Notes: generated by a model from the sequence alone, not told the origin. A stretch of 64,000 nt of DNA from Bernardetia sp. OM2101 (GCF_042180575.1 NZ_CP170094.1:1784604-1848603), one strand, 5' to 3'; positions 9,705 to 41,313 are shown, counted from the stretch's first letter. A program made the numbers and translations.

Positions 9705-11441
9705 ATGCCTAATTTTTCCTTTACGTCAACAACAATATTTACTTTTTTACTTTTATTTCTCTGTCAAACTTCAAGTTTTGCACAGTATGACACACATTAT
9801 CTCAAAAGTGGAAATCAAGCATTGATACAAAAAAATTATGTACAAGCAGAAACCGATTACACAACTTCCTTAAAGCACAACAGCAGAAATATGGAGGCAT
9901 ATCTTCAAAGAGGAATCGCAAGATGGCACTTAGGAAAATATAAAGATGCTATTTCAGACTTGGACAGAACAATTTTATTCAATTATAAATTAGCTGAAGC
10001 AAATCTATGGAAAGGGAAAAGTTATTATTCAATGGATTCTTATAAAGAAGCGATTAGTTATTTTGATAAAGCCTTAGAATTAAATACCGATAAAAATTCT
10101 CAGATTAATTCAGAAATCTATGAATATAAAGGCTTTGCCTATCAAAAAATGAATAATTCAGATAAAACAGTAGAGAATTTTAGATTAGCTTTAGGAGAAG
10201 GAAGTACAAAATCAGCAGAGATAAATTACGAACTAGCTACAATTAATTATTTGAATAAAAATTACGAAGAAAGTCTAAAAAATCTCCAAAAAGCAAGACA
10301 ATTAGGACATCCAAACCGTGTAGAAATTGCAAAGAAGATAGTTGTTTTGGATAAACTTATTGCAGAAGAAAAGAAAGCAAATGAAGCAAAAGACGTAAAA
10401 TTTCATTTTCAAAACCCAAGTAACCTTACAGCAACTGTTTCAAATTCTTTTTTTGATTTGGAGGTTTGTTTGGAATCTGAATTGATGGTAAATGAAGTAA
10501 AAGTTTTTGTAAATAATAAAGAACAAGACCCAATTAGAGGACTTACTGTAACACCAAGTACGACATGTGCCATCACAGTAAAACGCAAAATTCCTTTACA
10601 AAATGGCTCAAATGAAATCCGTTTGGAAGCAACAACAGCACAAGGAACTTTTTATTCAGATAAAGCAAACGTTACTTTTACTTCGCCAAGTCGAACAGAA
10701 AATGCTATTGCTTCGATGCCAAAAGTTTGGGCAGTTGTGGTAGGTGTGGCAAGTTATACAGCAATGCCAACGCTGCGTTATTCAGATGATGATGCGTATC
10801 AAATGTATGCCTTTTTGAAAAGTCCAGAGGGTGGCGCACTTTCTGACAATCAAATAACACTTTTAGTGGACGAAAATGCAACAAAATCACAGATTATAAA
10901 TTCCTTAAATCAAAAATTTAGTGCAGCTTCTGAAAACGATTTAGTTATTTTTTATTATGCTGGACACGGCTTAGAAGGTAGTTTTATCCCTTATGATTAC
11001 AATGGAACAGAAAGCACAAAACTTTTGCACAAAGACGTTCAAGATATTTTTACAAGCTGCAAAGCAAAGAATAAATTATTTATTGCAGATGCGTGTCATT
11101 CGGGAAGTAGCAGCGAAAATTTACGTGGAAATGTAAAAGCAACAATGGATAAATATTATCAAGCTCTTGCCAAAACTTCTGGAGGAACGGCACTTATGAT
11201 GTCGTCAAAAGCAGAAGAAACTTCATTAGAAAATAAGACCATTCGCCAAGGTGTTTTTAGTTATTATTTGATTCGTGGTTTAAAAGGAGAAGCAGATTTT
11301 AATGCTGATAATATTGTTTCGGTAAGAGAACTTTTTGATTACGTACAAACACAAACTCGCCAGTACACAAACTACCGTCAGAATCCAGAATTATACGGAC
11401 TTTTTGATCCAAATATGCCGATTGGAGCTGTTAGGAAATAA
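9705..11441 (+). CDS. secreted TPR-repeat protein with C-terminal caspase-like (peptidase C14) domain
   Basis: 578 aa with a signal peptide (…SSFAQ) and TPR-like repeats. C-terminal His/Cys dyad motifs YYAGHGLEG and FIADACHSGS. Confidence 0.75.
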   Translation: MPNFSFTSTTIFTFLLLFLCQTSSFAQYDTHYLKSGNQALIQKNYVQAETDYTTSLKHNSRNMEAYLQRGIARWHLGKYKDAISDLDRTILFNYKLAEANLWKGKSYYSMDSYKEAISYFDKALELNTDKNSQINSEIYEYKGFAYQKMNNSDKTVENFRLALGEGSTKSAEINYELATINYLNKNYEESLKNLQKARQLGHPNRVEIAKKIVVLDKLIAEEKKANEAKDVKFHFQNPSNLTATVSNSFFDLEVCLESELMVNEVKVFVNNKEQDPIRGLTVTPSTTCAITVKRKIPLQNGSNEIRLEATTAQGTFYSDKANVTFTSPSRTENAIASMPKVWAVVVGVASYTAMPTLRYSDDDAYQMYAFLKSPEGGALSDNQITLLVDENATKSQIINSLNQKFSAASENDLVIFYYAGHGLEGSFIPYDYNGTESTKLLHKDVQDIFTSCKAKNKLFIADACHSGSSSENLRGNVKATMDKYYQALAKTSGGTALMMSSKAEETSLENKTIRQGVFSYYLIRGLKGEADFNADNIVSVRELFDYVQTQTRQYTNYRQNPELYGLFDPNMPIGAVRK

Positions 11442-15353: not shown

Positions 15354-16997
15354 ATGCAAAACAATTATTATTTCATTCGTGCGCTTTCTTTGGAACTTTC
15401 AAAGCAGATTATCGGATTAGAAATTGCGACTATTTTTTCGCAAAATAAAGATGAATTATTGATAGGATTAATTGATAATAACAATCCAGAAACAGAATTT
15501 TGGATTCGTGCTACCTTTACCCCCGAACTAACAACACTTTCTTTTCCTCAAACTTTTGCACGAGCAAAACGAAATAGCATCGACCTTTTTGATTCTATTA
15601 TCGGAACAAAAATCACAAGTATTCGTCAGTTTAATAATGAACGAGCTTTTGGGATAGAACTAAAAAATGATAAAAACGAAGATTTTACTTTGTTATTCAA
15701 ATTATTTGGCAACCGTTCAAACATTATTTTATTTTCTCAAGATGAGAATTCAAAAAGTGAAAATTCAGAACAAGAAATTGAAGCTATTTTTCAACATAAG
15801 CTACAAGCCGATTGGGAAATTATTTATGAAGATTTGGATAGAAGTATAGAACAGGAAAAAGAAGATTTTATAGAAAATGGAATCAAGAAAACCTTTCCTA
15901 CTTTTGGAAAAGATGTTTTGACGTATTTGAAAAGCAAGGTAGGCAATAAAGTAGAAAATGCAGAAGACAGAGAAAATTATTGGAACGAAATCGAAAAATT
16001 AATTACTTATTTTGATGAGATAGAAAAGCTAGACTTTTATGTTTTCTTGAAAAAGAATGAAGTAAAATTATCTATTCTTAATCCAAAAGAGTTTATTAAA
16101 GATGCTGAAATTCTACACAAAACAGACAATGCCATTGAAGCATGTAATTTGTTTTACATGGAATTTTCAAGGCGTTATTATTTAGGCAAAGAAAAAAATG
16201 CAGCACTTAAAGCCATAGAAAAACGTCATCGCCAAACTCAAAACTATATAGACAAGACACTCAAAAAGATAGAAAAAGTAGAAAATACGATGCGTTACGA
16301 AGAATTTGGACATATTTTGATGGCAAATCTTCACGCTGTAGAACCTCGCTCAAAATCAGTAGAGCTTTTTGATTTTTATACCAACAAGCAAATCACAATT
16401 CCATTAAAAGACCATTTATCAGCACAAAAAAATGCAGAGCTTTTTTATAGAAAAGGAAAAAATCAAAAACTAGAAATTGATAATTTGTATCAAAATTTAG
16501 ATAAAAAAGAAGAGCAATTACGCCTTTTTGAAAGGCAGTTGGAGGAGATAAATAATTTTGAATCGCTCAAAGAAATGCGAAAGTTTTTGAAGGATAATAA
16601 AATTAAGGTAACCAATTTACAAGAAAACGAACCCGATGAATTACCTTTTAAAGTTTTTGAATATCAAGATTTTCAGATTTTGGTAGGAAAAAATTCTAAA
16701 AACAACGACTTACTTACTCAAAAATATGCTTACAAAGAAGATTTATGGCTTCATGCTCGTGGCGTAGCAGGTTCGCATGTCGTGATAAAATATAGAGCAG
16801 GAAAACCATTTCCAAAATCGGTCATCGAAAAAGCAGCCAGTTTAGCAGCCTATTATTCCAAGCGAAAAACGGATTCGCTTTGTCCTGTCATCGTAACACC
16901 TAAAAAATATGTCAGAAAACCAAAAGGAGCAGCACTTGGCGCAGTTGTCGTGGAAAGAGAAGATGTGGTAATGGTTGAACCGAAAGGATTTGAGTAA
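15354..16997 (+). CDS. NFACT-family RNA-binding protein (FbpA/RqcH-like ribosome quality control factor)
   Basis: 547 aa. C-terminal NFACT-R/DUF814 signature …LWLHARGVAGSHVVIKY…CPVIVTPKKYVRKPKGAALGAVVVE…. Confidence 0.75.
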   Translation: MQNNYYFIRALSLELSKQIIGLEIATIFSQNKDELLIGLIDNNNPETEFWIRATFTPELTTLSFPQTFARAKRNSIDLFDSIIGTKITSIRQFNNERAFGIELKNDKNEDFTLLFKLFGNRSNIILFSQDENSKSENSEQEIEAIFQHKLQADWEIIYEDLDRSIEQEKEDFIENGIKKTFPTFGKDVLTYLKSKVGNKVENAEDRENYWNEIEKLITYFDEIEKLDFYVFLKKNEVKLSILNPKEFIKDAEILHKTDNAIEACNLFYMEFSRRYYLGKEKNAALKAIEKRHRQTQNYIDKTLKKIEKVENTMRYEEFGHILMANLHAVEPRSKSVELFDFYTNKQITIPLKDHLSAQKNAELFYRKGKNQKLEIDNLYQNLDKKEEQLRLFERQLEEINNFESLKEMRKFLKDNKIKVTNLQENEPDELPFKVFEYQDFQILVGKNSKNNDLLTQKYAYKEDLWLHARGVAGSHVVIKYRAGKPFPKSVIEKAASLAAYYSKRKTDSLCPVIVTPKKYVRKPKGAALGAVVVEREDVVMVEPKGFE

Positions 16998-17062: not shown

Positions 17063-19981
17063 TTGGTTAAAAATATAGCTTTATTATTCTTTTTGTCTAT
17101 TTCATTTTTAACACAAGCACAAGAACCTGTATCTATACACCTTTCAGAAAAAAGTGGACTACAGTATAAAGAGTTCTATGATATCTTTGAGGATGATGAG
17201 GGTTTTATTTGGCTATGTGCAAATAAGGGATTACTTAGATATGATGGTAGAGAATTCAAATTATATAAACACTCAAAACAACGGGGATTATCCGTTTTTG
17301 GAGTAAAACAAGACAGTTTAGGACGTATTTGGTGTCAGAATATTTCAGGACAATTCTTCTATGTACAAGATAATGAAATGCACTTATTTATAGATGTAAA
17401 AGAACACTTAAAAGGAGAGTTACCCAGCTTTATCATTAATAATAATTCTTTATTGCTTTTTTGTGGGTCTAAAATTTATAAAATAAATCTAAATACTAAA
17501 CTTATAGAAGTTCCTTGGATCAATAATAGTAGTGTCAGTAGTCCTTTAGAAACGCACGAGGGTATATTCTTTACCAATGAAGATTCTTTAGTACACATCT
17601 CTCCAAAAGGTAATTTTGAAAAAATACTATCTACTCATCTTCCAGCAAAAAGTAAAAATGGAGAAACAATTACTTTTGGAAAGGCGAAAATTTTTAAAAG
17701 CACTTCATCACTCTTTTTATTAGAATCTAGGTTTGGTTTAAATACTTTTTTTCGTTTTAATATTTCGAAGAAAAATCTAACTAAGATGAAAGGTGTTGAG
17801 ACTTTAGAAGATAAAATAATATATACTAGTTTTGATAATAAAAATGAAATTTGGTTTGGCACAAACCATGGCGTTTGGATTTATGAAATTAAAAACGACC
17901 AATTTCAATTTAAAAAGCAATTTCTCAAGGATAAAAAAATCTCTAAAATAGTAAAAGATCAAGAAGGTAATTATTTCTTTACAACATTACACAATGGGAT
18001 TTATGTAATCCCCAATATGCATATCGAAGACTGCCAAATTTCAGAAGAAAACAAAAATATAAATAGTTTAGACATCATAAATGATAACACTTTAGTTTTT
18101 GGAACAAATGCTGGAAGTGTAGGAATTTATAATACAACAACAAATAAACATACACACATAGAAACAGGAACAAAAGGACATGTTTCTACACTTAAATACC
18201 ATAAAAAAACCAATGTCATTTTTATAAGTAAATCTTACTCTGCCTTTACATTAAACTATAATAATTTTGAATTAAAGAAGGTTAAAACTAGAGGTTTTCT
18301 TAATGCAAAAAGTCTAACAATATTAAAAAATGATGATTTGCTTTTAACAGATTACAAGGCTGTAAGAGTATTTAAAGAAGGTAATCTTGATAATGATACT
18401 CTTATTTATAGCAAAAGAACTTATGCATCACATTATAATAAAGATAAAAATGAAGTTTATATAGCATTCGTAGATAATTTAGTAAAATATGATAGTGCTT
18501 GGAATCCTACAGTTATTCAACACAAAAACAAGGCTCTTTTAGGTAAATCAATAACACAAATGTCTAATGGAATAGTGTGGTTTGCAAGTTTAAAAAATGG
18601 CATCTATGGAATTAAAAATGATTCTATACTATATCATTATACTACCAAAAATGGATTAATGTCTAATAATATAGAGCAAATTGAGGCAGATAAAAATACA
18701 TTATGGATAGCTTTAGATAATAGTGTGCAAATATTTGATTGTGCAACTCAAAAATTTAAGACATTAACTAAAAGAGACGGTATTATATCGTATGATATTT
18801 CTGGTATAGAAATCCTAAAAAATAAAGTATATCTTTCCTCAGATGAAGGATTATTATCCATAGATAAACGCCAACCATTTAAAAAACAAAATAATGAAAT
18901 ATATTTTAATGCTTTCGAAATAAATGATAGAGACACATTAGTTACCTCAATTTATAAATTAGCTCATGACCAAAATACAATTAAGATTGGTTTTAATGTG
19001 AATGGCTTCTCCTTTAATCATAAAGGAAGATATAAATACAGATTAAAGGGACTAAATGATAATTGGTTAAGTACTGACATGGGAATTAATTCTGTGAAAT
19101 ATAATAGTTTACCAGCAGGTAATTATACATTTCAAGTACAACCTGTTTTAGAAAATCAAACCGAGAATGGAGTTATAAAAGAACTTTTGATTGTGATATA
19201 CAAACCTTTTTGGCAAACATGGTGGTTTAGACTAGGAGGGCTTATACTAATTTTTGGAGGTACTGTTCTGTTCTTCAAAAAGAAAATTAGAAAGAAAGAA
19301 AAAGAACGTATTGCCGAGTTGGAAAAAATATCTTTAGAAAAAGAACTCATGGCTATAAACTTAACAGCATTGCGTTCACAAATGAATCCTCATTTTATTT
19401 TCAATGTCTTAAACTCTATTCAAGATTTAATACTACAAAAAAACACAGAGGCTTCTTATGATTATATTGTCACTTTTTCAGAATTAATACGCAATGCGTT
19501 AAGCTATTCCAATGAAGATTTTATTCCTATAGAAAAAGAATTGAAATTTTTAAATGTTTATTTGAAATTAGAAAAACTCCGATTTGGAGATACATTTAAT
19601 TATACTGTTAATTCTGATATCCAAGAGTTAATAAAAGTTCCTTCTTTATTGATACAACCTTTTATAGAAAATGCCTTAGTTCATGGCTTAATGCATAAAA
19701 AAGGAGAAAAAGAATTAAATATTAGCTTTGAATTTAAGGAAGAGTGTTTAAAATGTATCATTACCGATAATGGAATAGGACGAAAAAAGGTAAATGAAAT
19801 ATACACTCGTCAGAAGAATAAAAACGAATCATTTGCATTATCAGCTATCAAAAAAAGATTAGATATTTTTAAAAAGAAATACAATAACAATCTCGGCTAT
19901 GTTATTGAAGATTTATATAGTCATGAAAAAGATACAGGTACAAAAGTAATTTTGACATTACCATTTGACTATGATTTTTAG
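17063..19981 (+). CDS. sensor histidine kinase with periplasmic beta-propeller/Y_Y_Y region and LytS-type kinase core
   Basis: 972 aa with a signal peptide. One TM helix (WWFRLGGLILIFGGTVLFF). His_kinase motif NPHFIFNVLNSIQ and a C-terminal HATPase region. Confidence 0.8.
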   Translation: MVKNIALLFFLSISFLTQAQEPVSIHLSEKSGLQYKEFYDIFEDDEGFIWLCANKGLLRYDGREFKLYKHSKQRGLSVFGVKQDSLGRIWCQNISGQFFYVQDNEMHLFIDVKEHLKGELPSFIINNNSLLLFCGSKIYKINLNTKLIEVPWINNSSVSSPLETHEGIFFTNEDSLVHISPKGNFEKILSTHLPAKSKNGETITFGKAKIFKSTSSLFLLESRFGLNTFFRFNISKKNLTKMKGVETLEDKIIYTSFDNKNEIWFGTNHGVWIYEIKNDQFQFKKQFLKDKKISKIVKDQEGNYFFTTLHNGIYVIPNMHIEDCQISEENKNINSLDIINDNTLVFGTNAGSVGIYNTTTNKHTHIETGTKGHVSTLKYHKKTNVIFISKSYSAFTLNYNNFELKKVKTRGFLNAKSLTILKNDDLLLTDYKAVRVFKEGNLDNDTLIYSKRTYASHYNKDKNEVYIAFVDNLVKYDSAWNPTVIQHKNKALLGKSITQMSNGIVWFASLKNGIYGIKNDSILYHYTTKNGLMSNNIEQIEADKNTLWIALDNSVQIFDCATQKFKTLTKRDGIISYDISGIEILKNKVYLSSDEGLLSIDKRQPFKKQNNEIYFNAFEINDRDTLVTSIYKLAHDQNTIKIGFNVNGFSFNHKGRYKYRLKGLNDNWLSTDMGINSVKYNSLPAGNYTFQVQPVLENQTENGVIKELLIVIYKPFWQTWWFRLGGLILIFGGTVLFFKKKIRKKEKERIAELEKISLEKELMAINLTALRSQMNPHFIFNVLNSIQDLILQKNTEASYDYIVTFSELIRNALSYSNEDFIPIEKELKFLNVYLKLEKLRFGDTFNYTVNSDIQELIKVPSLLIQPFIENALVHGLMHKKGEKELNISFEFKEECLKCIITDNGIGRKKVNEIYTRQKNKNESFALSAIKKRLDIFKKKYNNNLGYVIEDLYSHEKDTGTKVILTLPFDYDF

Positions 19982-20083
19982 ATGATGTGATGGTTGGAGT
20001 TATCCGAAGGAGTTTGATTAGTTAGGAATTGGGGAATAGAGATCGGGAATTAGGAAATGACTGTTTTTAGGTAAATCAAATAC

Positions 20084-20135
20084 TGTCACCAGTGGTGACA
20101 CAATCAGTTTTTATAAAACTCGCACCAGTGGTGCG
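20084..20135. promoter_or_regulatory. two tandem hairpins sharing the CACCAGTGGTG core upstream of the ROCO-TIR gene
   Basis: tgtcaccagtggtgaca at 20084-20100 and cgcaccagtggtgcg at 20121-20135. Each has a 6-7 bp stem and 3-nt loop, with centres 36 bp apart. Confidence 0.5.
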
Positions 20136-20216
20136 ATAAATTGAAGACAAAAAATTATTACAATTAAAAAAGAAATAGTATTTTAGTGAGATAAAAAATA
20201 CTTACTCAATAAGAAC

Positions 20217-22898
20217 ATGAAACCTAAAGAAATTATAGAATTAGAAAATCTATTATCTAAGAGATTAAATAAATCAATAGAGTTAGTACAAAAGACTTTA
20301 GATGAAATGAAAAACCATGCAGGTAGTTTTGCATACTCTCTAAACTCTTCAAATGAAGTGAATGGTCTCGGTTTTCTTTTTGATAAAGTGAAAGATATAA
20401 GTTTTGTTAAAGCATTTCCAAAGTTAGAAGTTTTAGATTTAAGCGATTGTGAACTACAAAACCTTCAAGATGAATTATTTGAATTGAAAGAACTTACTCA
20501 TTTGAGTATAAGTGCTAATCCTATTTCTCATATTCCTAAGGATATTTTAAAATTAGAAAAACTAGAATATTTCAATTGTGGATTTATAAATGGTAATTTT
20601 TCTCCTGCTATAGAATTTCCTAATTTTTTACAAAATCTAAAAAACTTGAAACACCTCTTAATTCATGGTAATGGATTAACAGAAATTCCTCAATGGATAT
20701 ATAAACTAAAAAATCTAGAGAGTCTAAATATTTATAATAATCATATTACAACTATCAGTGAAAAAATACTAAACCTTGATAAACTCAATGACATAAACAC
20801 TTTATATTTAGAAATAACTTCTCCTCCTCCTAATATTGTAAAACTAGGAGCAAAGGCTATAAAGGCTTATTTTAGAGGGTTAGAGTTAGGTTATATTGAA
20901 AATAATCATATCAAAATTATACTTGTTGGAAATGCTCATGTAGGCAAAACGATGTTATTCAATTATCTTACTAAAGCAAAAACCCCTATTGATTTTGCAG
21001 GTTCTACACATGGAATAAGAGTTGGAAATTTTAATATTGAAATAGAAAAAAGTGAAGCAGTAAACGTAAATCTATGGGACTTTGGAGGTCAAGAATATTA
21101 TCATGCTACACATCGTTTATTTTTTTCTGATAATGTTTTGTATTTACTTCTTTGGGAACAGGAAACTGATAAATATGGAAGCTATACATTCACTAGCGAA
21201 CAAGATACTATTATATCTCAACAAGGATTACAATATTTCAATCCTCCTATCTCTACAGAAATTACTACAGAAGGATTTCCTGTAGTTGATTGGGTAAGTA
21301 ATATAAGATTTTTTTCAAAGGATAGCCCAATATTATTAGTTCAAAACAAAACTGATATTCAAGAGCCTAAATATAGATTTTCAGAGTTAGAAGAAGATAT
21401 TCCTCATACTAGAGTTAGTCTAAAAAAATTAGAAGGTATTAACGAATTAGAAAAACTTATAAAAAGCTCAATACAAAATCTAAAACACTACAAATATAAA
21501 ATCCCAGTTTCTTGGCAGAAAGTAATTGAATTTATCAGTAGCTTAGGAAATAATTATTTTGGAATACGGTATGATTCATTAGAAAGGGAAGTTCAATCAT
21601 GGAATCAAGAAATGATAGATGATTTACCACAAATACTAAATTTTTATCACGAAAGAGGAGATATTCTTTGGATAAAAAATAACGAATTACTTAAAAAGTA
21701 TATATTTCCTCAACCTTGGAGAATAACAAATACGATTTATAGCATATTAAATAGAAAAGTAGCTGATAAAGATAAGGGCGAGTTTACTAGAGAATCTATA
21801 TATAGTTTGTATGGAAATCAAAAAGAACACGTAGACTTTTGTTTGGAACTCATGAAAGAATTTGAAATTATTTTCAGTATAAAAAATGAAGATAAAATAT
21901 TTATCGCTCCTCAATATCTAAATAAAAAAATACAAGACAAAAAACGTTTAGAAGACAATATTTACTATACAGAACCACAAAAAGTTTTTACTCTGCATTA
22001 TCCTACTTTTATGCCTAAAAGTATTTTTACTCGCTTTATCTGTAATTATGGAATGTATGCTGATAAAATGATGTATGGAAAAGAAGAGATTTATTTTGCT
22101 AAAAATAAAGTTGGAAGCTACGTAACTTGTGATTATGAAAAAAAAGTTATTACTGTAAATGTCCAAAATCAAAATGATACTCTAACTAAAGAAATTTTTG
22201 ATGAGTTATATCGTATAAGTGGTGGAAAAGATAACTTGCAACTTTATTCAGAAGCAAAAAATCGTTTTGTAAGTCTATCAGACATACGAGAATATGAAGA
22301 CACTTATAAAAATGACTTTTGGTTTATGTTTAAAAGTTCACAAGAAAATAAAATTATGAAAAAAGAAAAAAATAAAATAAATATTTTTGTTTCTTATTCA
22401 AGTAGAGATAGAGAATTAAGGGAACTTTTAGTAGAAGGAGTTCAAAAACATTTAACTCATCGCCAAAACTTTGAATATGAACAATGGACAGATGCAGAAA
22501 TTGATTTTGGTTCAGATTGGAAAGAAACGATTGAAAAAGCATTAAAAGAAAGCAACGTCGCTATTTTATTGGTTAGTGCTAATTTTGCAGCTTCTTCATT
22601 TATAAATGAAAATGAATTGACAGCATTTTTTGAAAGACAAAAAGCAGGAGGGTATTTAATTTTACCTGTGTTAGTTATGAAATATGATTTTTTACAATTC
22701 GAAAAGTTGTCAAAAATAAATTTCTTTAAGACCTATTATAGCGAATATGGATTTACAAAACCTATAGAAAGAAACAAATTACTTCCTTTTGATAAACTAG
22801 CAGAAAATGAAAATACAACTAATGGACAACTAAATTTATACTATGAAAAATTAGCTGATTTTATTCATACAGCCGTTTCTAATAAATTCAAATCCTAA
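20217..22898 (+). CDS. LRR - Roc (Ras-like GTPase) - COR - TIR multidomain protein (ROCO-TIR), candidate NAD-targeting defence effector
   Basis: 893 aa. LRR consensus around aa 60-215 (LEVLDLSDCELQNL…LTHLSISANPISHIP…). GTPase motifs: G1 GNAHVGKT, G3 DFGGQ, G4 NKTD (about aa 228-400). COR-length linker. C-terminal TIR domain (INIFVSYSSRDRE…AILLVSANFAASSFINENEL). Confidence 0.8.
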   Translation: MKPKEIIELENLLSKRLNKSIELVQKTLDEMKNHAGSFAYSLNSSNEVNGLGFLFDKVKDISFVKAFPKLEVLDLSDCELQNLQDELFELKELTHLSISANPISHIPKDILKLEKLEYFNCGFINGNFSPAIEFPNFLQNLKNLKHLLIHGNGLTEIPQWIYKLKNLESLNIYNNHITTISEKILNLDKLNDINTLYLEITSPPPNIVKLGAKAIKAYFRGLELGYIENNHIKIILVGNAHVGKTMLFNYLTKAKTPIDFAGSTHGIRVGNFNIEIEKSEAVNVNLWDFGGQEYYHATHRLFFSDNVLYLLLWEQETDKYGSYTFTSEQDTIISQQGLQYFNPPISTEITTEGFPVVDWVSNIRFFSKDSPILLVQNKTDIQEPKYRFSELEEDIPHTRVSLKKLEGINELEKLIKSSIQNLKHYKYKIPVSWQKVIEFISSLGNNYFGIRYDSLEREVQSWNQEMIDDLPQILNFYHERGDILWIKNNELLKKYIFPQPWRITNTIYSILNRKVADKDKGEFTRESIYSLYGNQKEHVDFCLELMKEFEIIFSIKNEDKIFIAPQYLNKKIQDKKRLEDNIYYTEPQKVFTLHYPTFMPKSIFTRFICNYGMYADKMMYGKEEIYFAKNKVGSYVTCDYEKKVITVNVQNQNDTLTKEIFDELYRISGGKDNLQLYSEAKNRFVSLSDIREYEDTYKNDFWFMFKSSQENKIMKKEKNKINIFVSYSSRDRELRELLVEGVQKHLTHRQNFEYEQWTDAEIDFGSDWKETIEKALKESNVAILLVSANFAASSFINENELTAFFERQKAGGYLILPVLVMKYDFLQFEKLSKINFFKTYYSEYGFTKPIERNKLLPFDKLAENENTTNGQLNLYYEKLADFIHTAVSNKFKS

Positions 22899-22901
22899 CT
22901 A

Positions 22902-22938
22902 AAAACATGCACCCACTAATCCAAAAAGCCATAAATCA
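22902..22938. repeat. 37-bp direct repeat, copy 1 (aaaacatgcacccactaatccaaaaagccAtaaatca)
   Basis: Starts 4 bp after the ROCO-TIR stop codon. Contains a 13-codon remnant ORF MHPLIQKAINHYE. Confidence 0.85.
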
Positions 22939-22940
22939 TT

Positions 22941-23909
22941 ATGAATAAAGATTTTGAAGAAGTCATACATTTAATTTCAGATGCTAAAAACCAAACCAAT
23001 TCTATTATAAATCGTGCTTTGGTAGAATTGTATTGGAAAGTTGGAAAATATGTTTCCCTAAAAACAGAAAATGTAGAAAATGCTAATGCTACAATAAAAG
23101 AGTTAGCTCAATATATAATGTATAGAGAACCTCATTTGAAAGGATTTAATGGACGTGGTTTGTGGCGAATGAAACAGTTTTATGAAGAATATTCTCAAAA
23201 TTCGACGTTGTCACCACTGGTGACAACGATAAGCTGGACAAATAATTTACTCATTTTATCCAAAACAAAAACGGTAGAAGAAAAGGAGTTTTACATCAAA
23301 AAATGTATAAAAGAAAGGTACAGCAAACGAGAATTAGAAAGACAAATTGATAGTGCTTATTATGAAAGAACAATGCTTAGTAATACGCAAAGTAGCATAA
23401 CAGCAGAAGAACTTTATCCACGCATAAAGGAAGTTTTTTTGGATAATTATGTAGTAGAATTTTTGAATTTGAAAGATGATTTTTCTGAATTTGACTTACA
23501 AAAATCTATTCTCAAACATCTCAAAAAATTTGTTTTAGAGTTTGGAAAAGATTTTTTATTGATAGATGAAGAGTACAAAGTACAGGTAGGAAATCAAGAT
23601 TTTTATATTGACTTATTATTTTTTCATAGAGAATTACGTTGCTTGGTGGCTCTTGAACTCAAAATTACAGACTTCAAACCTGAATATTTAGGTAAAATGA
23701 ATTTCTATTTAGAAGCCTTAGACAGAAATGTAAAAAAGGAACACGAAAATCCAAGTGTAGGAATTATCCTTTGTAAAACTAAAGATAGTGAAGTAGTAGA
23801 ATATGCACTTAGTAGAAACTTGTCTCCTACTTTAGTTTCTGAATACGAAACCAAATTATTAGATAAAAAAATACTTCAACAGAAATTACATGAACTATTT
23901 GAAAATTAA
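22941..23909 (+). CDS. DUF1016/YhcG-family PD-(D/E)XK nuclease domain protein
   Basis: 322 aa. N-terminus …NRALVELYWKVGKYVS… and C-terminal restriction-endonuclease-like core …VALELKITDFKPEYLGKMNFYLEALD… are characteristic of the YhcG family. Confidence 0.8.
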   Translation: MNKDFEEVIHLISDAKNQTNSIINRALVELYWKVGKYVSLKTENVENANATIKELAQYIMYREPHLKGFNGRGLWRMKQFYEEYSQNSTLSPLVTTISWTNNLLILSKTKTVEEKEFYIKKCIKERYSKRELERQIDSAYYERTMLSNTQSSITAEELYPRIKEVFLDNYVVEFLNLKDDFSEFDLQKSILKHLKKFVLEFGKDFLLIDEEYKVQVGNQDFYIDLLFFHRELRCLVALELKITDFKPEYLGKMNFYLEALDRNVKKEHENPSVGIILCKTKDSEVVEYALSRNLSPTLVSEYETKLLDKKILQQKLHELFEN

Positions 23910-23914
23910 CCTTT

Positions 23915-23951
23915 AAAACATGCACCCACTAATCCAAAAAGCCCTAAATCA
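23915..23951. repeat. 37-bp direct repeat, copy 2 (36/37 identical to copy 1)
   Basis: Begins 6 bp after the DUF1016 stop. Provides the start codon and first 8 codons of the 70-aa ORF at 23920-24132. Confidence 0.85.
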
Positions 23952-24132
23952 ATTAAATTCCAACAATTACAGAGGATATTTTGAAGAAATGGATATGATT
24001 ATTCCTTCTACTATGAGTACAAATTATCAAGAACTCAAAGGCTTTTTTGTAGCAGGAATAAAAAATGAAGAGTTTAAAGAAGCCTTGAATGTTTTTGCTT
24101 TGGAAGTGGATGGAAAGCTATATAAAAGCTAA
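23920..24132 (+). CDS. small hypothetical protein (70 aa)
   Basis: ORF MHPLIQKALNQLNSNNYRGYF…; its N-terminus is duplicated upstream of the DUF1016 gene. Followed by a terminator. Confidence 0.3.
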   Translation: MHPLIQKALNQLNSNNYRGYFEEMDMIIPSTMSTNYQELKGFFVAGIKNEEFKEALNVFALEVDGKLYKS

Positions 24133-24140
24133 TAAAAAAA

Positions 24141-24181
24141 CTGTCAAGACACTTTTAAAGTGTCAGACAGTTAGTTTTTTT
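24141..24181 (+). terminator. rho-independent terminator (hairpin plus T7)
   Basis: ctgtcaagacacttttaaagtgtcagacag followed by ttagttttttt. A second related hairpin at 24207-24234 probably serves the minus-strand DUF779 gene. Confidence 0.5.
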
Positions 24182-24243
24182 GAAACAAGAAGTTTTGCTT
24201 TTTAAATTGTCTGACACTCTGAAGTGTCTGACAATGAAAAATA

Positions 24244-37973: not shown

Positions 37974-40900
37974 GAAAAAAATTATTACTATATATTTTTC
38001 TATTCCTTTCTTTTGGAATAAAAGCACAGAATGTTCAGAATTATGTTATTACAGCTGGTTCTAATGAAAACCTCGTAGATGGAGGAGGTTGGACTCAAAT
38101 TATTGGTTCAAATCAACTCAATGTTGCTTCAGCAATTACAAACATAGGATTTGAAGTTTGGTTTATGGGCGAACGTTTTACAACCTTTTCAGCCAATACA
38201 GGAGGAGTAATGCGTTTTGGTAATACACAAATAGTTGGTGGCGCAAATAGTCCTGGTGTACCTAGAAATGCAAGAGTCTGTGTTTTTGGAGCTTCTATAG
38301 AAGTTACTGCTGATAGATGGCGTACAGAAAACAATGGTCAAGTTAGATATAAAATGATTGGAACAGCTCCTAATAGAATATTAATAGTGGATTGGGTAAA
38401 TCTAAGAATGGAAGGGAGTGCTAGTACTAATACAGGAATATCTCGTTTTCAAGCTCATATCTATGAAACAGCTCCTCCCCCTACTAATACAAATGGAGGG
38501 GTTGTGAAAATAGTATATGGTAGGATGTTTATACAATCTCATGCTGCTACATCCATTTGTGGATTCAGTAGTGATACTTTTACCACTACTTGGACAGGTA
38601 TTGGATACGGTAACTCCAGTACAGATGTAGTGTATATTAATACTGATAATCATGCTAGTGTAACTGCCACAAATCGTTCTTATGGAACTAGTTTAGAATC
38701 CTGTAATGGTTTTGGTGCAGCACCAACTAATATAACTTCTCTCAATAGTAACAGTAATGGCAATCGTCGTTTTATAACTTCAACCCACCAACAGTAATTG
38801 GACAAGAAGTAGATGTATCAGCAAGTTGTCTATCAAGTACATCTTTTAATTTGAACTGGACGGATAATGCTACCAATGAAGTAGGAATTGTACTTTATCG
38901 TTCTGTAAATGGTGGTGCTTACGTTTTTGACAGACAATTACCAGCAGACACAGAAACAACAACCATTACAGGACTGACTCCTTCTACAAATTATAGCTAT
39001 CAAGTTTATGCAGTAACAGAAGGCAAGTTAAGTACCTTAGCTCCCACAGGTACAGTATCTTTTACTACTTTACCTGCTACTGCTAATGTTGTATATTCTA
39101 TTACAGATGGAAATTGGAATAATCTGTTTACTTGGATTACCAGTTTACTTCCTATATTTTCCAATGATGTTATAATTGGTTGTATTGACCCTGATATAGT
39201 TACTGTAAATACTCCATTAATTACTAATATATGCAGAACACTTACAGTAGAAACCGGAAGCCAACTTAATTTCAATGTAGGAGAAACACTTAGAGTTCAA
39301 GGTGATGTTACTAATAAAGGAACAATTGATGTAAATGGAGGAACACTTATAATAGAAGGAAACTTAATCAATACAACAAGCTCAACGGTAAGTATAGGCA
39401 ACGGTACACTCATAGTAGAAGGAAGTTTTCAAAATGCAGCCACAGCCACACTAAATGGAAATACTGGATTATTTAGGTTAGCAGGAAATTTCACGAATCA
39501 AGGTGCATACAACCCAAATACTTCCACCATGCGTTTTGATGGAACTACTCAACAACTTATTAATCATACAGGAACAAGTAATTATAACTCTTCTAGTACA
39601 GTTACTTTTAATACAAATGAAATCTTGCCATTAGATATTCCACCAATAGGAACAGGCGGTGGTGCTAATAATTTAAACGGAGGCAATGGAGTAACATTAG
39701 CTGGCTTAAATACTTATATTTCAGACCATGTCCGTATAGTAACCTTTAACGTTCCAGCAGGAACATATACAGGAATAAATAACCTTTTAGTGGATATAAA
39801 TCATACTTGGAATTCTGATATAGAAATGTATTTAGTTACTCCTAATAATACAGTTTATTCTGTAGCTGCTGATATGGGTGGAAATGGAGATGGTTATGAT
39901 AATGTTACTTTTACAATGAACAATCCTCCTGCGACTACTACTGCACCTACTGGAAATACAACTATTACAGGTAGTTTTTTTCCAATAGAAAACTGGAATG
40001 GTTATGCAGGAACTTATGTAGGAACTTGGTCTTTGTACATTATTGATGATGCTGGTGGTGATTTTGGGACTTTAAATACAACTTCTCTCACACTCAATCA
40101 AGTCTCTACACCACCACCAACAGGATTACAGTTTTTTGATGTAGAAATGCAAAATACAGGAATAGAAGTTCGTACTCAAAATACAGATATTATAGTAAAT
40201 AATTCTGCCACTTGGACAACTGGAATTTTCAGAGCAGATAACAATCACCTACTTATTTTCCCTGATAATACTACTTCAACTGTTGCTATTAATGCAAGTC
40301 ATGCAGATATGAGTGTACGTAAAATAGGAAATGATGCCTTTGATTTTCCAATTGGTAATGCAGGCTGGGGTGCACCGATTGGAATTTCTGCTCCTTCTGA
40401 TGTAGTAGACCATTTTACTGCCTATTATGTAAAACAAGTTACACCTTATGACCCTTTTTCCAAAGAAGCAACTATTCATCATGTCGGACAATGTGAATAC
40501 TGGATTTTGGATAGAGCAATTGGATCTTCTTCGAATGTAGTAGTTACGCTTAGTTATGATGATATTCGTAGTTGTACTGTAGGACCTACAGGATTAAAAG
40601 TAGTACGTTGGGATGGCGCAATTTGGAGAGACCATTTTAATGGAGGGATTATAAATACACCTTACGACGGTGTTTTGAGTTTGGGAACAGTAAATAATTT
40701 TAGTCCTTTTACACTTGGGGCATTAACTGATGAAAATATTCTACCACTTACTTTCTTATCTTTTGATGCAAAACCATTAGAAAGTGATGCTATTTTAGAT
40801 TGGACAACAACAGGAGAATTAAACCACGATTATTTTGAAATTGAACGCTCTATAAATGGCGAATATTTTAAAGAAATTGGAAATGTAAAAGATGCAATCT

Positions 40901-41313
40901 CAAGAGATAATACTAAAAGTACTTATTCATTTATCGATAAAAATGTAGGAATAGAAAACAGAGAAGCCTATTACCGTCTGAAACAAATTGATACAGACGG
41001 TACTTTTGCTTATTCTGACATCAAAAAAGTAAATTGGAGTATCAACAATTCTGAAAGTGAACCTATTTTTGTAGCTTATCCAAACCCATTTACAGATATT
41101 CTAACTCTTGAATTTGATTTAGAAAAACAAAAAAATATAGAAATTACTTTAATGGATATGGCAGGACGTACTATCAAAACTATTTCTCAATCTTTCTCAA
41201 AAGGGAGCAATAAATTAGAATTAAATAATCTTCAAAATTTAGCTCAAGGAAGTTATTTGATACAATTAAAAACCAATCTTACACACAAAACTTTTCAAGT
41301 TGTAAAAATGTAG
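37974..41313 (+). pseudogene. T9SS C-terminal sorting domain cargo protein with proprotein-convertase P-domain-like module; reading frame broken twice (frameshifted gene or sequencing errors)
   Basis: The ATG at 37974 gives MKNYYYIFFYSFLLE-stop. One extra A in the A5 run restores MKKLLLYIFLFLSFGIKAQN… (signal peptide), continuous with the frame-2 ORF up to 38797. A second -1 shift within 38756-38797 joins the frame-1 ORF 38851-41313. The last ~75 aa match the Por secretion C-terminal domain. Confidence 0.6.

Follow-up and report, generated by a model that had tools for sequence, protein, structure and literature searches.

At positions 20217..22898 on the plus strand, the window (the whole 64-kb stretch of Bernardetia chromosome that was analyzed) carries an uninterrupted ORF with an ATG start, which encodes 893 aa followed by a stop codon. 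The host region has a G+C content of 28%, and the strand opposite the ORF is stop-rich. The features of the ROCO locus described below lie on the plus strand unless noted otherwise. The Pfam search bears out the four-part layout of LRR, Roc, COR and TIR that the original prediction had proposed for these 893 aa, with all LRR, Roc, COR-A, COR-B and TIR_2 matches above Pfam thresholds, and every motif it had quoted (GNAHVGKT, DFGGQ, NKTD, FVSYSSRD and ILLVSANFAASSFINENEL) is found in the translation. Structure prediction likewise returned both a ROCO fold and a TIR fold: the full-length AlphaFold model (pLDDT 84.5, pTM 0.70) has as its best Foldseek match the LRR-Roc-COR crystal structure of Chlorobium tepidum Roco (CtRoco, 6hlu; E 2.7e-31), with LRRK1 and LRRK2 next in rank, while its Roc-COR tandem matches the RocCOR structures 3dpu and 4wnr as well as 6hlu. 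With a Ras-like Roc domain directly preceding COR in one chain, the product is a ROCO protein, which we refer to as ROCO-TIR.

The first 60 residues (20217..20396) form a helical cap, with DSSP helices at aa 3–16 and 20–35 and pLDDT values of 42–75, and the Pfam search gave no match within aa 1–60. The cap is followed by about six leucine-rich repeats (aa 61–200; 20397..20816), the presumed sensor, which match LRR_4 (9.9e-14), LRR_8 (2.6e-13) and LRR_14 (4.7e-12) over aa 61–194 and form regular strand-helix repeats in the AlphaFold model. Identity in the LRR region is low among homologues (~27%), and the stretch that precedes the P-loop varies between 142 and 706 aa in length, whereas the portion from Roc to the C-terminus measures ~632–756 aa. 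By these comparisons, the LRR sensor appears to vary on a chassis of near-constant length.

The Roc G domain (aa 226–425; 20892..21491) is recognized by the Pfam Roc (2.4e-18) and Ras (3.7e-10) profiles and aligns with Methanosarcina barkeri Roco2 (4wnr) and CtRoco. It contains the G1 motif or P-loop GNAHVGKT (aa 238–245; 20928..20951), the G3 or switch II motif DFGGQ (aa 288–292; 21078..21092), which includes the Ras-Q61-like Gln292, and the guanine-specificity motif NKTD of G4 (aa 377–380; 21345..21356). Residues G238, G243 and K244 of G1, T264 of G2 (the switch I Thr) and D288–Q292 of G3 are invariant in 66 homologues, and the N, K and D of NKTD are found in 59/66, 54/66 and 39/66, respectively. 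G1–G4 are thus complete, in keeping with the earlier claim of intact Roc motifs, and their integrity indicates that the domain probably does bind and hydrolyze GTP. The Pfam Roc match spans aa 233–319, reaching position 93 of 119 in the profile, and the 4wnr alignment skips from aa 322 to aa 359. These alignments and the model delineate a clade-specific insertion (aa 314–358; 21156..21290) that is predicted to be a beta-hairpin, with strands at aa 321–329 and 345–353 and pLDDT below 50 at aa 336–341. Downstream, COR-A (aa 430–568; 21504..21920) is matched over the full profile (1–143 of 143; 5e-16), and COR-B (aa 575–690; 21939..22286) is supported by a Pfam match at aa 591–678 (2.7e-6; 27.7 bits, the cut-off being 27) and by Foldseek matches to the COR structures 3dpt and 3dpu. 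Because Pfam matches both, what had been described as a COR-length linker proves to be a genuine COR-A and COR-B. In solved ROCO structures, COR-B is the dimerization module. A flexible linker (aa 691–718; 22287..22370), with pLDDT below 50 at aa 710–716, leads into the TIR domain.

The TIR core (aa 719–840; 22371..22736) is defined by Pfam TIR_2 (2.3e-13; aa 723–838) and TIR (1.2e-6), by the PADLOC ThsB model and by a TIR-only structure model with a pLDDT of 91.3. All of the 26 best Foldseek matches of this model are TIR domains, including RPPT-TIR, SPARTA, RPP1, AbTir, ThsB (9b7d) and SARM1, such that Pfam and Foldseek together confirm the predicted C-terminal TIR fold. FVSYSSRD occupies aa 724–731 and ILLVSANFAASSFINENEL aa 783–801. 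The latter contains Glu800 (codon 22614..22616), the candidate catalytic residue of the TIR, which in phmmer alignments coincides with the Glu of the AbTir "YEL" and plant TIR (3jrn) "DEL" motifs; the catalytic role of these aligned residues is known from the TIR literature. Glu800 is kept in 50/66 homologues, and the 16/66 without a Glu at this position partly reflect gaps and possibly alignment error. The remaining ~55 aa (22737..22895) form a subfamily-specific C-terminal extension (FFKTYY..YGF.KP.ERNKLLPFDKL ... IHTAVSNKF) with modeled helices at aa 858–863 and 869–892. TIR-EAD11 proteins and TIR proteins that stand alone share this extension at 55–70% identity, and over the TIR as a whole they are likewise 55–70% identical to the window protein.

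The ROCO-TIR gene lies in a hotspot whose left edge is an NFACT (RqcH-like) gene (15354..16997; Pfam NFACT_N 9e-31), found in all compared loci, and whose right edge is a conserved 70-aa ORF (23920..24132), which follows the hotspot in every locus examined and has relatives in 12 clusters (68–93% identity), the named ones all being from Bernardetia. Among the other Bernardetia loci, the interval between these edges is empty in L084–L088, representing at least two lineages. It holds Uma2 in L082, YhcG and Uma2 in L083, and HTH, RelBE and Uma2 in L089, while a ROCO gene occupies it in L001 and in the window. Directly upstream of ROCO-TIR in the window is further hotspot cargo, a Y_Y_Y/Reg_prop/His_kinase sensor gene (17063..19981; Pfam) that is not a defence gene. 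It is missing at L001 and L082–L089, that is, from every other locus, and is therefore not a conserved partner of ROCO-TIR.

Remnants of both flanking genes bracket the ROCO block. On the left, ~40 nt from the very end of the NFACT gene recur in decayed form (19981..20021); this copy marks the boundary of the imported block and is closer to the L001/L084 variants than to the window's own NFACT end (16961–16997). Between this copy and the ROCO gene are two 17-nt palindromes, TGTCACCAGTGGTGACA and TCGCACCAGTGGTGCGA (20084..20136, no strand assigned), the first identical in L001 and both flagged as terminator-like on the minus strand. On the right, the 5′ end of the 70-aa ORF is duplicated over 37 nt (22902..22938), the copy forming a direct repeat with 23915–23951 (36/37 positions identical), whereas the sequence is single-copy in all other Bernardetia loci. 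The cassette-like repeats noted in the original prediction are real but flank the adjoining YhcG gene rather than the ROCO gene, the first copy serving as both the right boundary of the ROCO block and the left boundary of the YhcG cassette. This separate cargo (22941..23909; YhcG_C 2e-52, DUF1016_N 3e-35) is indeed the YhcG/DUF1016 PD-(D/E)XK nuclease gene that had been reported as a neighbor and corresponds to the PADLOC defence candidate PDC-S02 (6e-118); it is not at the equivalent L001 position and is beside 0/56 TIR-type homologues. The PADLOC search of the window also places a TPR-caspase gene near ROCO-TIR.

The nearest relative is L001, in which the LRR-Roc-COR part is 92.9% identical to that of the window while the C-terminal module differs from the linker on. 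Nucleotide homology ends inside the linker at 22340, which marks the effector-swap breakpoint (~22340), and the L001 module gives a sub-threshold match to DUF4062 (E 0.0014), a domain for which a role as NADase immune effector has lately been reported (bioRxiv 10.64898/2026.09.04.749371). Cassette exchange at the COR-B/effector linker is seen here, with a TIR and a DUF4062-like module on one chassis. In a separate pairwise comparison, the 70-aa ORF is weakly similar (E 9e-6) to the helical segment preceding the L001 effector. Relative to the L001 copy, dN/dS is 0.16 over 707 codons of the ROCO gene and 0.10 in the LRR region. The gene is under purifying selection, and we take it to be functional because of this value of 0.16. 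The flanking core genes, with dS values of 0.42–0.68, exceed its dS (0.205) by a factor of 2–3. Taken with the variable hotspot, the presence/absence pattern and the flanking-gene remnants, this low dS identifies ROCO-TIR as an accessory and mobile gene. The L001 copy has two frameshifts, both in A-runs of a metagenome assembly, which may mean that the gene is dispensable or costly or may instead be assembly or sequencing errors.

Across 81 loci, mostly from Bacteroidota, a TIR of the window's type is carried by 56/84 ROCO ORFs, and Pfam places TIR, EAD1, EAD8, EAD11 or CHAT in the C-terminal effector slot of the homologues. Several MAGs have 2–3 ROCO loci, while the 64-kb window has one copy. 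A survey of the neighborhoods of 45 TIR-type homologues, taking in 150 genes at most two positions away, detected no conserved partner gene; the immediate neighbors are mostly housekeeping genes, each PADLOC family occurs in at most 2/150 genes, and known defence genes are not enriched. The "typical defence-island context" ascribed to the gene therefore holds for the window and the genus, with their variable hotspot, nucleases, toxin-antitoxin genes and PDC-S02, but not family-wide at these 45 loci.

Bacterial proteins that combine LRRs with an AP-GTPase (equivalent to Roc) and COR were described by Kaur, Iyer, Burroughs and Aravind in 2021 (eLife e70394, PMC8195603), who list at least 24 alternative C-terminal effectors, TIR explicitly among them, and label these proteins, by computational prediction, as counter-invader systems. 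In the source data of that study, the string "COR+TIR" occurs 581 times, corresponding to ~290 "LRR+AP-GTPase+COR+TIR" entries. The novelty implied by the original prediction thus does not stand, with ~290 such proteins catalogued by 2021, and the architecture is also common in our own survey. By its sequence, the window protein fits this class in architecture: its domain order and content are identical to those of Nostoc punctiforme Npun_F6039, and it shares the variable LRR, the variable effector slot that includes TIR, the lack of an obligatory partner and the bias, in filamentous or multicellular bacteria, toward Bacteroidota and cyanobacteria. It does not differ from the class in kind: it is a Bernardetia protein that the catalogue had missed, among the shorter ones of the class (893 aa) with ~6 LRRs, and it adds a documented hotspot site and a natural effector-swap pair. 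As to two further traits of the class, fast diversification of the sensor and expansion of paralogues within lineages, the LRR length range, the low LRR identity and the MAGs with 2–3 loci speak in favor, while the LRR dN/dS of 0.10 and the single copy in the window do not. The literature we searched contains no bacterial ROCO with demonstrated phage defence. The domain layout is not new in itself, and the gain left is a first experimental validation.

When compared to structurally characterized ROCO proteins, ROCO-TIR shares the LRR-Roc-COR-A-COR-B fold of CtRoco (6hlu, 8r4b), with the 6hlu match extending over ~700 columns. It aligns with M. barkeri Roco2 at a phmmer E of 7e-29 and, like CtRoco and Roco2, has a DFGGQ switch II with Gln. 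In contrast to both, it has the ~45-aa Roc insertion between G3 and G4, identity being ~19%, and its C-terminal TIR has no counterpart in the Foldseek alignments to 6hlu and 8r4b. The LRR-Roc-COR core and the combination of a GTPase and an enzymatic output in one chain also recall human LRRK1, LRRK2 and DAPK1 (Foldseek 1e-26 to 1e-21), although the output here is a TIR rather than a kinase, ARM, ANK and WD40 domains are absent, and the protein is about one third the size. The NLR-like sensor-switch-effector logic that had been proposed is a fair description of this architecture: as in Avs/bNACHT-TIR proteins and plant TIR-NLRs, a sensor repeat, an NTPase switch and a TIR are combined, and the TIR fold is near those of RPP1 and RPPT-TIR. 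However, a Ras-like GTPase with COR takes the place of a STAND/AAA+ ATPase as the switch, and the order is reversed relative to plant TNLs, with the LRR N-terminal and the TIR C-terminal. The TIR is of the TIR_2 type seen in ThsB, AbTir and SPARTA TIR-APAZ, with motifs FxSYS..D, G..W and S..F.......E, the last ending in the Glu that aligns with AbTir; unlike these, it is fused to a ROCO module, carries the C-terminal extension and has no ThsA or Argonaute partner. Its closest relatives are TIR-EAD11 proteins (Pfam PF19964; 68–70% identity to P0133 and P0135). EAD-adaptor effector proteins belong to ternary/NTPase conflict systems (Kaur et al. 2020, eLife 9:e52696). Whereas TIR-EAD11 is a small, separate protein recruited through its adaptor, the window TIR is covalently fused after COR-B and lacks an EAD.

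On balance, we read ROCO-TIR as probably being a cytoplasmic, single-chain receptor-effector of the ROCO family, encoded by an accessory "conflict" gene of this Bernardetia (Cytophagales, Bacteroidota) chromosome. A defence role is plausible in view of the variable hotspot, the remnants that bracket the block, the effector swap in L001, the dN/dS and dS values, the neighboring PDC-S02 and TPR-caspase genes and the earlier prediction from comparative genomics; the mostly housekeeping neighbors across the family, the homologues without Glu800 and the L001 frameshifts count against it. We infer that the LRR senses a ligand, that the GTPase is coupled to the TIR, that the TIR is an NADase and that the protein protects against phage. 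The likeliest mechanism, favored here with moderate confidence, is abortive infection by a TIR NADase that the GTPase gates in response to sensing by the LRR. At rest, the LRR would be folded back onto Roc-COR, as in the nucleotide-free CtRoco dimer. Binding of an infection-derived ligand to the variable LRR would lift this autoinhibition and alter the nucleotide state of Roc, and the conformational change would be relayed by way of COR-A/COR-B and the flexible linker until it reaches the TIR domains at the C-terminus. These would have to pair or oligomerize before an active site for NAD+ cleavage can take shape around Glu800, such that depletion of NAD+, or production of a cyclic ADP-ribose isomer, would arrest the infected cell, with GTP hydrolysis acting as a reset or timer of the switch. 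TIR NADases require self-association, whereas in CtRoco, the best-studied bacterial ROCO, GTP binding is reported to lead to monomerization (PMC5714945, PMC11052575). A simple scheme in which GTP turns the protein on by oligomerization would therefore conflict with the known ROCO cycle.

Two other readings were weighed. In one, the TIR generates a signal as in Thoeris: instead of killing through NAD+ depletion of its own, it makes a cyclic ADP-ribose-type messenger, which switches on an effector whose gene lies at another site of the genome. ThsB is the best defence-library match of the TIR (PADLOC 6.5e-12; Pfam ThsB_TIR 0.02) and is found among its fold matches (9b7d), and TIRs of animal proteins, some of them containing Roc-COR, make cADPR isomers in E. 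coli (bioRxiv 10.64898/2026.04.20.719644). However, sensor and effector genes are adjacent in known signaling TIR systems, whereas no ThsA-like, SLOG, SIR2 or Macro gene adjoins ROCO-TIR in the window and no gene family is conserved beside the 45 surveyed homologues; we consider this reading unlikely. Thoeris membership proper was rejected, as only the TIR part matches ThsB and a ThsA-like neighbor is neither present in the window nor conserved in homologous loci. The search of the PADLOC catalogue recovers the TIR part of the protein, but no model matches outside it.

In the other, ROCO-TIR is a non-immune switch in housekeeping or developmental signaling of a filamentous gliding bacterium, with the TIR as an interaction scaffold or a local NAD+-linked regulator. 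The overwhelmingly ordinary genes beside the homologues, the lack of defence-gene enrichment within two genes and the two-component sensor kinase directly upstream in the window fit this view, and according to reviews no studied prokaryotic ROCO has a known physiological role. That kinase is absent from every other compared locus, though, and presence/absence polymorphism among close relatives, at least two lineages of which have an empty site, argues against a housekeeping role, as do import with remnants of both flanking genes, replacement of the effector on a 93%-identical chassis, conservation of the candidate catalytic Glu and the occurrence of the same TIR in EAD-adaptor effector proteins of predicted conflict systems. 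We therefore regard a non-immune function as improbable.

It is less likely still, and in our view very doubtful, that the gene only looks intact and has no function, having been left over from an imported island. The broken L001 sister copy and the recombination scars at the locus would suit decay, but an 893-codon ORF persists in a region of 28% G+C, where stop codons arise easily, its catalytic motifs are all intact, dN/dS is low, and the L001 frameshifts in A-runs may be sequencing errors. Finally, secreted bacterial TIR proteins exist and the LRR part resembles XopL, XopAC and Leptospira LRR proteins (NCBIfam, PDB), but delivery into other cells as a virulence or competition factor, comparable to Tcp/TirS or LRR type III effectors, is extremely unlikely given NCBIfam scores far under the cut-offs (55 vs 1000 bits), an N-terminus (MKPKEIIELENLLSKRLNK...) predicted to be a helix with no signal peptide, the absence of a T9SS C-terminal sorting domain in a window that has a genuine Por_Secre_tail elsewhere (38851–41313), and an internal GTPase switch and COR typical of cytoplasmic regulators.

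Returning to the GTPase-gated TIR, we tentatively suggest that ROCO-TIR proteins could be single-gene bacterial immune receptors that have a Ras-like GTPase where NLR and Avs proteins have a STAND ATPase, with the GTP/GDP-driven dimer-monomer cycle of Roc-COR gating the pairing of TIR NADase domains and with effectors exchanged as cassettes at the COR-B/effector linker. If this is true, how Roc-COR controls an output domain, a question still standing for LRRK2, could for the first time be studied in a tractable model, this small protein of 893 aa. If the predicted function holds, it would represent a class of bacterial immune receptor with the GTPase switch of the Parkinson's protein LRRK2 and an easily assayed NADase as its output. 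Being short, soluble and partner-free, with loss of NAD+ as a readout, ROCO-TIR could be used to probe how the nucleotide state of Roc-COR is transferred to an effector, and the Bernardetia hotspot provides natural controls in its empty sites and in an allele whose effector has been swapped while the chassis is 93% identical. The immune toolkit shared by bacteria and eukaryotes would, if true, be widened from STAND NTPases to ROCO GTPases.

The ROCO-TIR gene is a single unbroken open reading frame on the forward strand (20217-22898, ATG start, 893 aa, from the window ORF list and its translation), and the strand opposite is closed by numerous stops. A look-up of the exact protein sequence gave no record. 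Pfam profiles match the product in the order of leucine-rich repeats (aa 61-194; LRR_4 9.9e-14, LRR_8 2.6e-13, LRR_14 4.7e-12), Roc (aa 233-319; 2.4e-18), COR-A (aa 430-568; 5e-16, full profile covered), COR-B (aa 591-678; 2.7e-6, slightly over the cut-off) and TIR_2 (aa 723-838; 2.3e-13, with the TIR profile at 1.2e-6). What the original prediction described as a COR-length linker is, by its COR-A and COR-B matches, a genuine COR, and every motif it quoted is found in the translation. The Roc match ends at profile position 93 of 119, and an insertion of ~45 aa (aa 314-358, window 21156-21290), which folds as a β-hairpin in the AlphaFold model, lies between G3 and G4. This insertion is common to Bacteroidota homologues, whereas the archaeal Roco2 structure lacks it and its alignment skips from aa 322 to aa 359. 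The full-length AlphaFold model (pLDDT 84.5, pTM 0.70) is closest to the crystallized LRR-Roc-COR protein of C. tepidum (6hlu; E 2.7e-31, ~700 aligned columns), followed by LRRK1 and LRRK2. When the TIR region is modeled alone (pLDDT 91.3), the best PDB matches are TIR domains in 26 of 26 cases, among them plant RPPT-TIR, RPP1, L7, SPARTA TIR-APAZ, AbTir, ThsB and SARM1. The predicted architecture is thus confirmed, far beyond chance.

The catalytic residues are intact. Across a 66-sequence homologue alignment (A3), P-loop residues G238, G243 and K244, switch I residue T264 and the switch II stretch D288-F-G-G-Q292 are invariant, while N377, K378 and D380 are kept in 59, 54 and 39 homologues, respectively. 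Conservation is also strong at F724, S726, Y727, D731, G765, W768, S787 and F790 of the TIR domain. E800, present in 50/66 homologues, is the candidate catalytic residue, as it aligns in phmmer comparisons against solved TIRs with the Glu of the AbTir "YEL" and Arabidopsis TIR 3jrn "DEL" motifs, which we take, from the published TIR literature, to be the catalytic glutamates.

We obtained 272 relatives by searching 5.8 billion proteins; many have the same LRR-Roc-COR-TIR_2 composition, and others have EAD1, EAD8, EAD11 or CHAT where the window protein has its TIR domain. The 81 loci that we drew from GTDB species representatives are nearly all from Bacteroidota (Saprospiraceae, Chitinophagales, Cytophagales and Flavobacteriales), with two or three ROCO loci in several MAGs, and a window-like TIR is found on 56 of their 84 ROCO ORFs. 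Homologues have 142 to 706 aa ahead of the P-loop, but the length from Roc to the C-terminus is steadier, at ~632-756 aa and mostly 640-700 aa. All-against-all clustering of 1006 neighbor ORFs yields no conserved partner of the TIR-type ROCOs. Were the TIR domain instead to signal to a distal effector in a Thoeris-like manner, as its similarity to ThsB might suggest, a partner gene would be expected to recur, and we consider this reading unlikely. We favor a single chain that combines sensor, switch and effector.

The window is chromosomal and low in G+C (~31%, dropping to 27-28% over 18-24 kb), and its recA, uvrC, bamA and transaldolase genes and three tRNA genes rule out a prophage or plasmid origin. 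Since tRNA and Rfam scans give no match near the locus, it is not a tRNA-linked island. Our promoter scan, made with a tool for sigma-70 rather than Bacteroidota promoters, gives 40 matches against 41 expected. Just downstream lies a 70-aa ORF (23920-24132) with 12 homologue clusters at 68-93% identity, the named ones being Bernardetia (Cytophagales), and these homologues led us to the equivalent locus in further Bernardetia genomes and metagenomes. Between the NFACT (RqcH-like) gene and this ORF lies a variable hotspot: it is empty (28-291 bp) in L084-L086 and L087-L088, and holds one Uma2 nuclease gene in L082 (Bernardetia sp. Wsw4-3y2), YhcG and Uma2 in L083, HTH, RelE/RelB, Uma2 and small ORFs in L089, a ROCO gene in our nearest relative, L001, and a Y_Y_Y/His-kinase gene, ROCO-TIR and YhcG in the window. 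The ROCO-TIR gene is accordingly accessory and mobile.

Several neighboring features deserve mention. The kinase gene (17063-19981) is absent in all other loci compared. Upstream, a TPR and caspase (Peptidase_C14) protein (9705-11441) matches the PADLOC "caspase" model (1e-18). Of the six other Bernardetia loci that reach that far upstream, all but L087 have its gene at this position, so that it behaves as mostly conserved and not as cargo of the hotspot. In L083 (1234-1695) and L084 (3696-4157), an IS200-type Y1 transposase gene (Y1_Tnp) adjoins an aminotransferase gene; it is missing from the window. The 70-aa ORF, which Bernardetia keeps as a stand-alone gene, has no Pfam or PADLOC match of any kind, even at an E-value of 10, and so is no recognized EAD adaptor. 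It has weak pairwise similarity (E 9e-6) to a helical segment, EYDSFFDEMDKMEIPPKL (L001 11400-11560), which lies ahead of the L001 ROCO effector, and might be an unrecognized EAD-like adaptor module or simply a core gene.

The cassette-like repeats of the original prediction include a 37-nt direct repeat (22902-22938 versus 23915-23951, 36 of 37 positions matching), but its copies exactly bracket a YhcG gene (22941-23909) and not the ROCO gene. The repeated sequence comes from the start of the 70-aa ORF and occurs twice in the window but once in every other Bernardetia locus, and we reject it as an integron-like attachment site or ROCO cassette boundary. The bracketed gene is the nuclease gene that had been predicted nearby; its YhcG/DUF1016 product is the PADLOC defense candidate PDC-S02 (6e-118). 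Because this ~1-kb insertion sits between two copies of the downstream ORF start where other loci have one, the arrangement points to recombination inside the 5' end of the flanking gene as the way in which the hotspot gains cargo. YhcG is not a functional partner of the ROCO, being absent beside the L001 ROCO and all 56 of 56 TIR-type homologues, and being a separate insertion with its own 37-nt duplication.

Comparable scars surround the ROCO-TIR gene. Immediately after the kinase gene, positions 19981-20021 hold a degenerate second copy of the ~40 nt with which NFACT ends, closer in sequence to the versions in L001 and L084 than to the NFACT terminus of the window itself (16961-16997), such that the ROCO-TIR block (19981-22938) has remnants of both hotspot-flanking genes on its two sides. 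Such bracketing remnants are the scar to be expected if donor hotspot content had recombined in beside existing cargo. In agreement with import, the shared ROCO part has a dS of 0.205 between the window and L001, as opposed to 0.42-0.68 for flanking core genes. Upstream of the ROCO gene there are also short palindromes, (T)GTCACCAGTGGTGAC(A) or CCACTGG in form (20084-20100 and 20120-20136), with a similar one inside the YhcG coding region (23207-23225) and longer "tgtcagaca"-type hairpins after the 70-aa ORF (24150-24235). All of these may represent REP-like elements or else terminators.

Comparison with L001 shows that the effector is modular. Nucleotide identity is 92.9% over 19980-22340, against 80-85% in the flanks, and it breaks off sharply at aa ~708, within the low-confidence linker between COR-B and TIR, to return at the 37-nt element. 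The L001 ROCO has a different C-terminus, in which the helical segment leads into a module that resembles DUF4062 below threshold (E 0.0014, 19 bits versus a cut-off of 24.7) and TIR_2 more weakly. We tentatively regard this module as DUF4062-like and a possible "NIR" NADase, the name under which DUF4062 was recently reported as an NAD+-degrading immune effector (bioRxiv 10.64898/2026.09.04.749371). The reported defense score of DUF4062, the share of homologues within 10 genes of known systems, is 20% against 3.9%. Two 1-nt frameshifts in A-runs, which may be genuine or may stem from the assembly, break the L001 gene (9265-12161; ENA ERZ25039505 contig_18609) into three ORFs. The window TIR is closest to small stand-alone TIR proteins (55-70% identity), part of which are TIR-EAD11 fusions (EAD11 at 1e-20 in P0133). 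In the conflict systems that the Aravind group described, TIR-EAD11 proteins are the effectors linked through an adaptor, and they share their TIR subfamily with the window protein.

The defense-island context that had been proposed holds in part. The evidence from the variable Bernardetia hotspot, with its PDC-S02 gene, is much stronger than that from the family as a whole: among 150 genes lying at most two positions from any of 45 TIR-type homologues, no PADLOC family recurs more than twice, and the family-wide signal is therefore weak. The commonest Pfam families among these neighbors are FGE-sulfatase (5), Por_Secre_tail (5) and HATPase_c (4); DUF4231/SLATT_1 (3) and pYEATS (3) are found as well. 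FGE-sulfatase-like (FGS) genes recur in 10 of the surveyed loci (L022, L023, L033, L040, L043, L046, L047, L051, L059 and L081), mostly beside ROCOs without a window-type TIR, the exceptions being L022, L047 and L059. They are small, often several in tandem, and recall the FGS components of the conflict systems of Kaur et al. The ordinary gene neighborhoods across the family would suit a regulatory ROCO with no immune role, but hotspot polymorphism, the effector swap and the conserved Glu all speak against this, and we judge it improbable. The alternative that the gene is a decaying hitch-hiker is less probable still, given an 893-codon ORF that is intact in AT-rich DNA and a dN/dS of 0.16 versus L001 across 707 shared codons (LRR 0.10, Roc 0.12, COR 0.19), which indicates purifying selection on the ROCO chassis.

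We return to a cytoplasmic single-chain sensor-switch-effector with a putative role in phage defense, whose mechanism we regard as probable, if far from certain. Secretion as an effector is very hard to credit, as the protein has neither a signal peptide nor a T9SS sorting domain, one of which is detectable elsewhere in the window. For the single chain, the variable LRR would bind an infection-derived ligand and would thereby be freed from Roc-COR, after which the nucleotide state of Roc would shift. COR and the flexible linker would then move the TIR domains into self-association and NAD+ cleavage at E800, with NAD+ loss or a cADPR-type product arresting the infected cell, and GTP hydrolysis would return the switch to its start. 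TIR NADases require self-association. In CtRoco, monomerization is driven by GTP (PMC5714945, PMC11052575), and reconciling this with the need of TIR domains to self-associate is the main mechanistic difficulty. For this reason, the active state could be a GDP-bound or nucleotide-free dimer, or a ligand-nucleated higher-order assembly.

The original interpretation is reasonable, although it is not new. The string "COR+TIR" appears 581 times in the Figure 6 source data of Kaur et al. (PMC8195603), where entries are printed twice, corresponding to ~290 proteins such as Npun_F6039, and a Bernardetia litoralis LRR+AP-GTPase+COR protein is also included (PMC8195603). In PADLOC v2, the defense catalogue that we searched, only TIR models match the ROCO-TIR protein. 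Our literature searches found no paper that tests a bacterial ROCO for phage defense by experiment. A 2026 preprint reports that TIRs from a wide range of animals produce cADPR isomers when expressed in E. coli, and LRR, Roc and COR are among the domains of its test proteins (bioRxiv 10.64898/2026.04.20.719644). The window protein belongs to a known, computationally predicted class, and its architecture is no surprise to a specialist. What is new is the Bernardetia hotspot, whose alleles are empty or differently filled, the explanation of the repeats by recombination scars, a natural pair of ROCOs with swapped effectors and a 93%-identical chassis, and the tie between the window TIR subfamily and EAD11-adaptor effectors. 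As a compact ROCO with an assayable output, the protein is well suited to a first experimental test of its class and to the study of how Roc-COR controls output.
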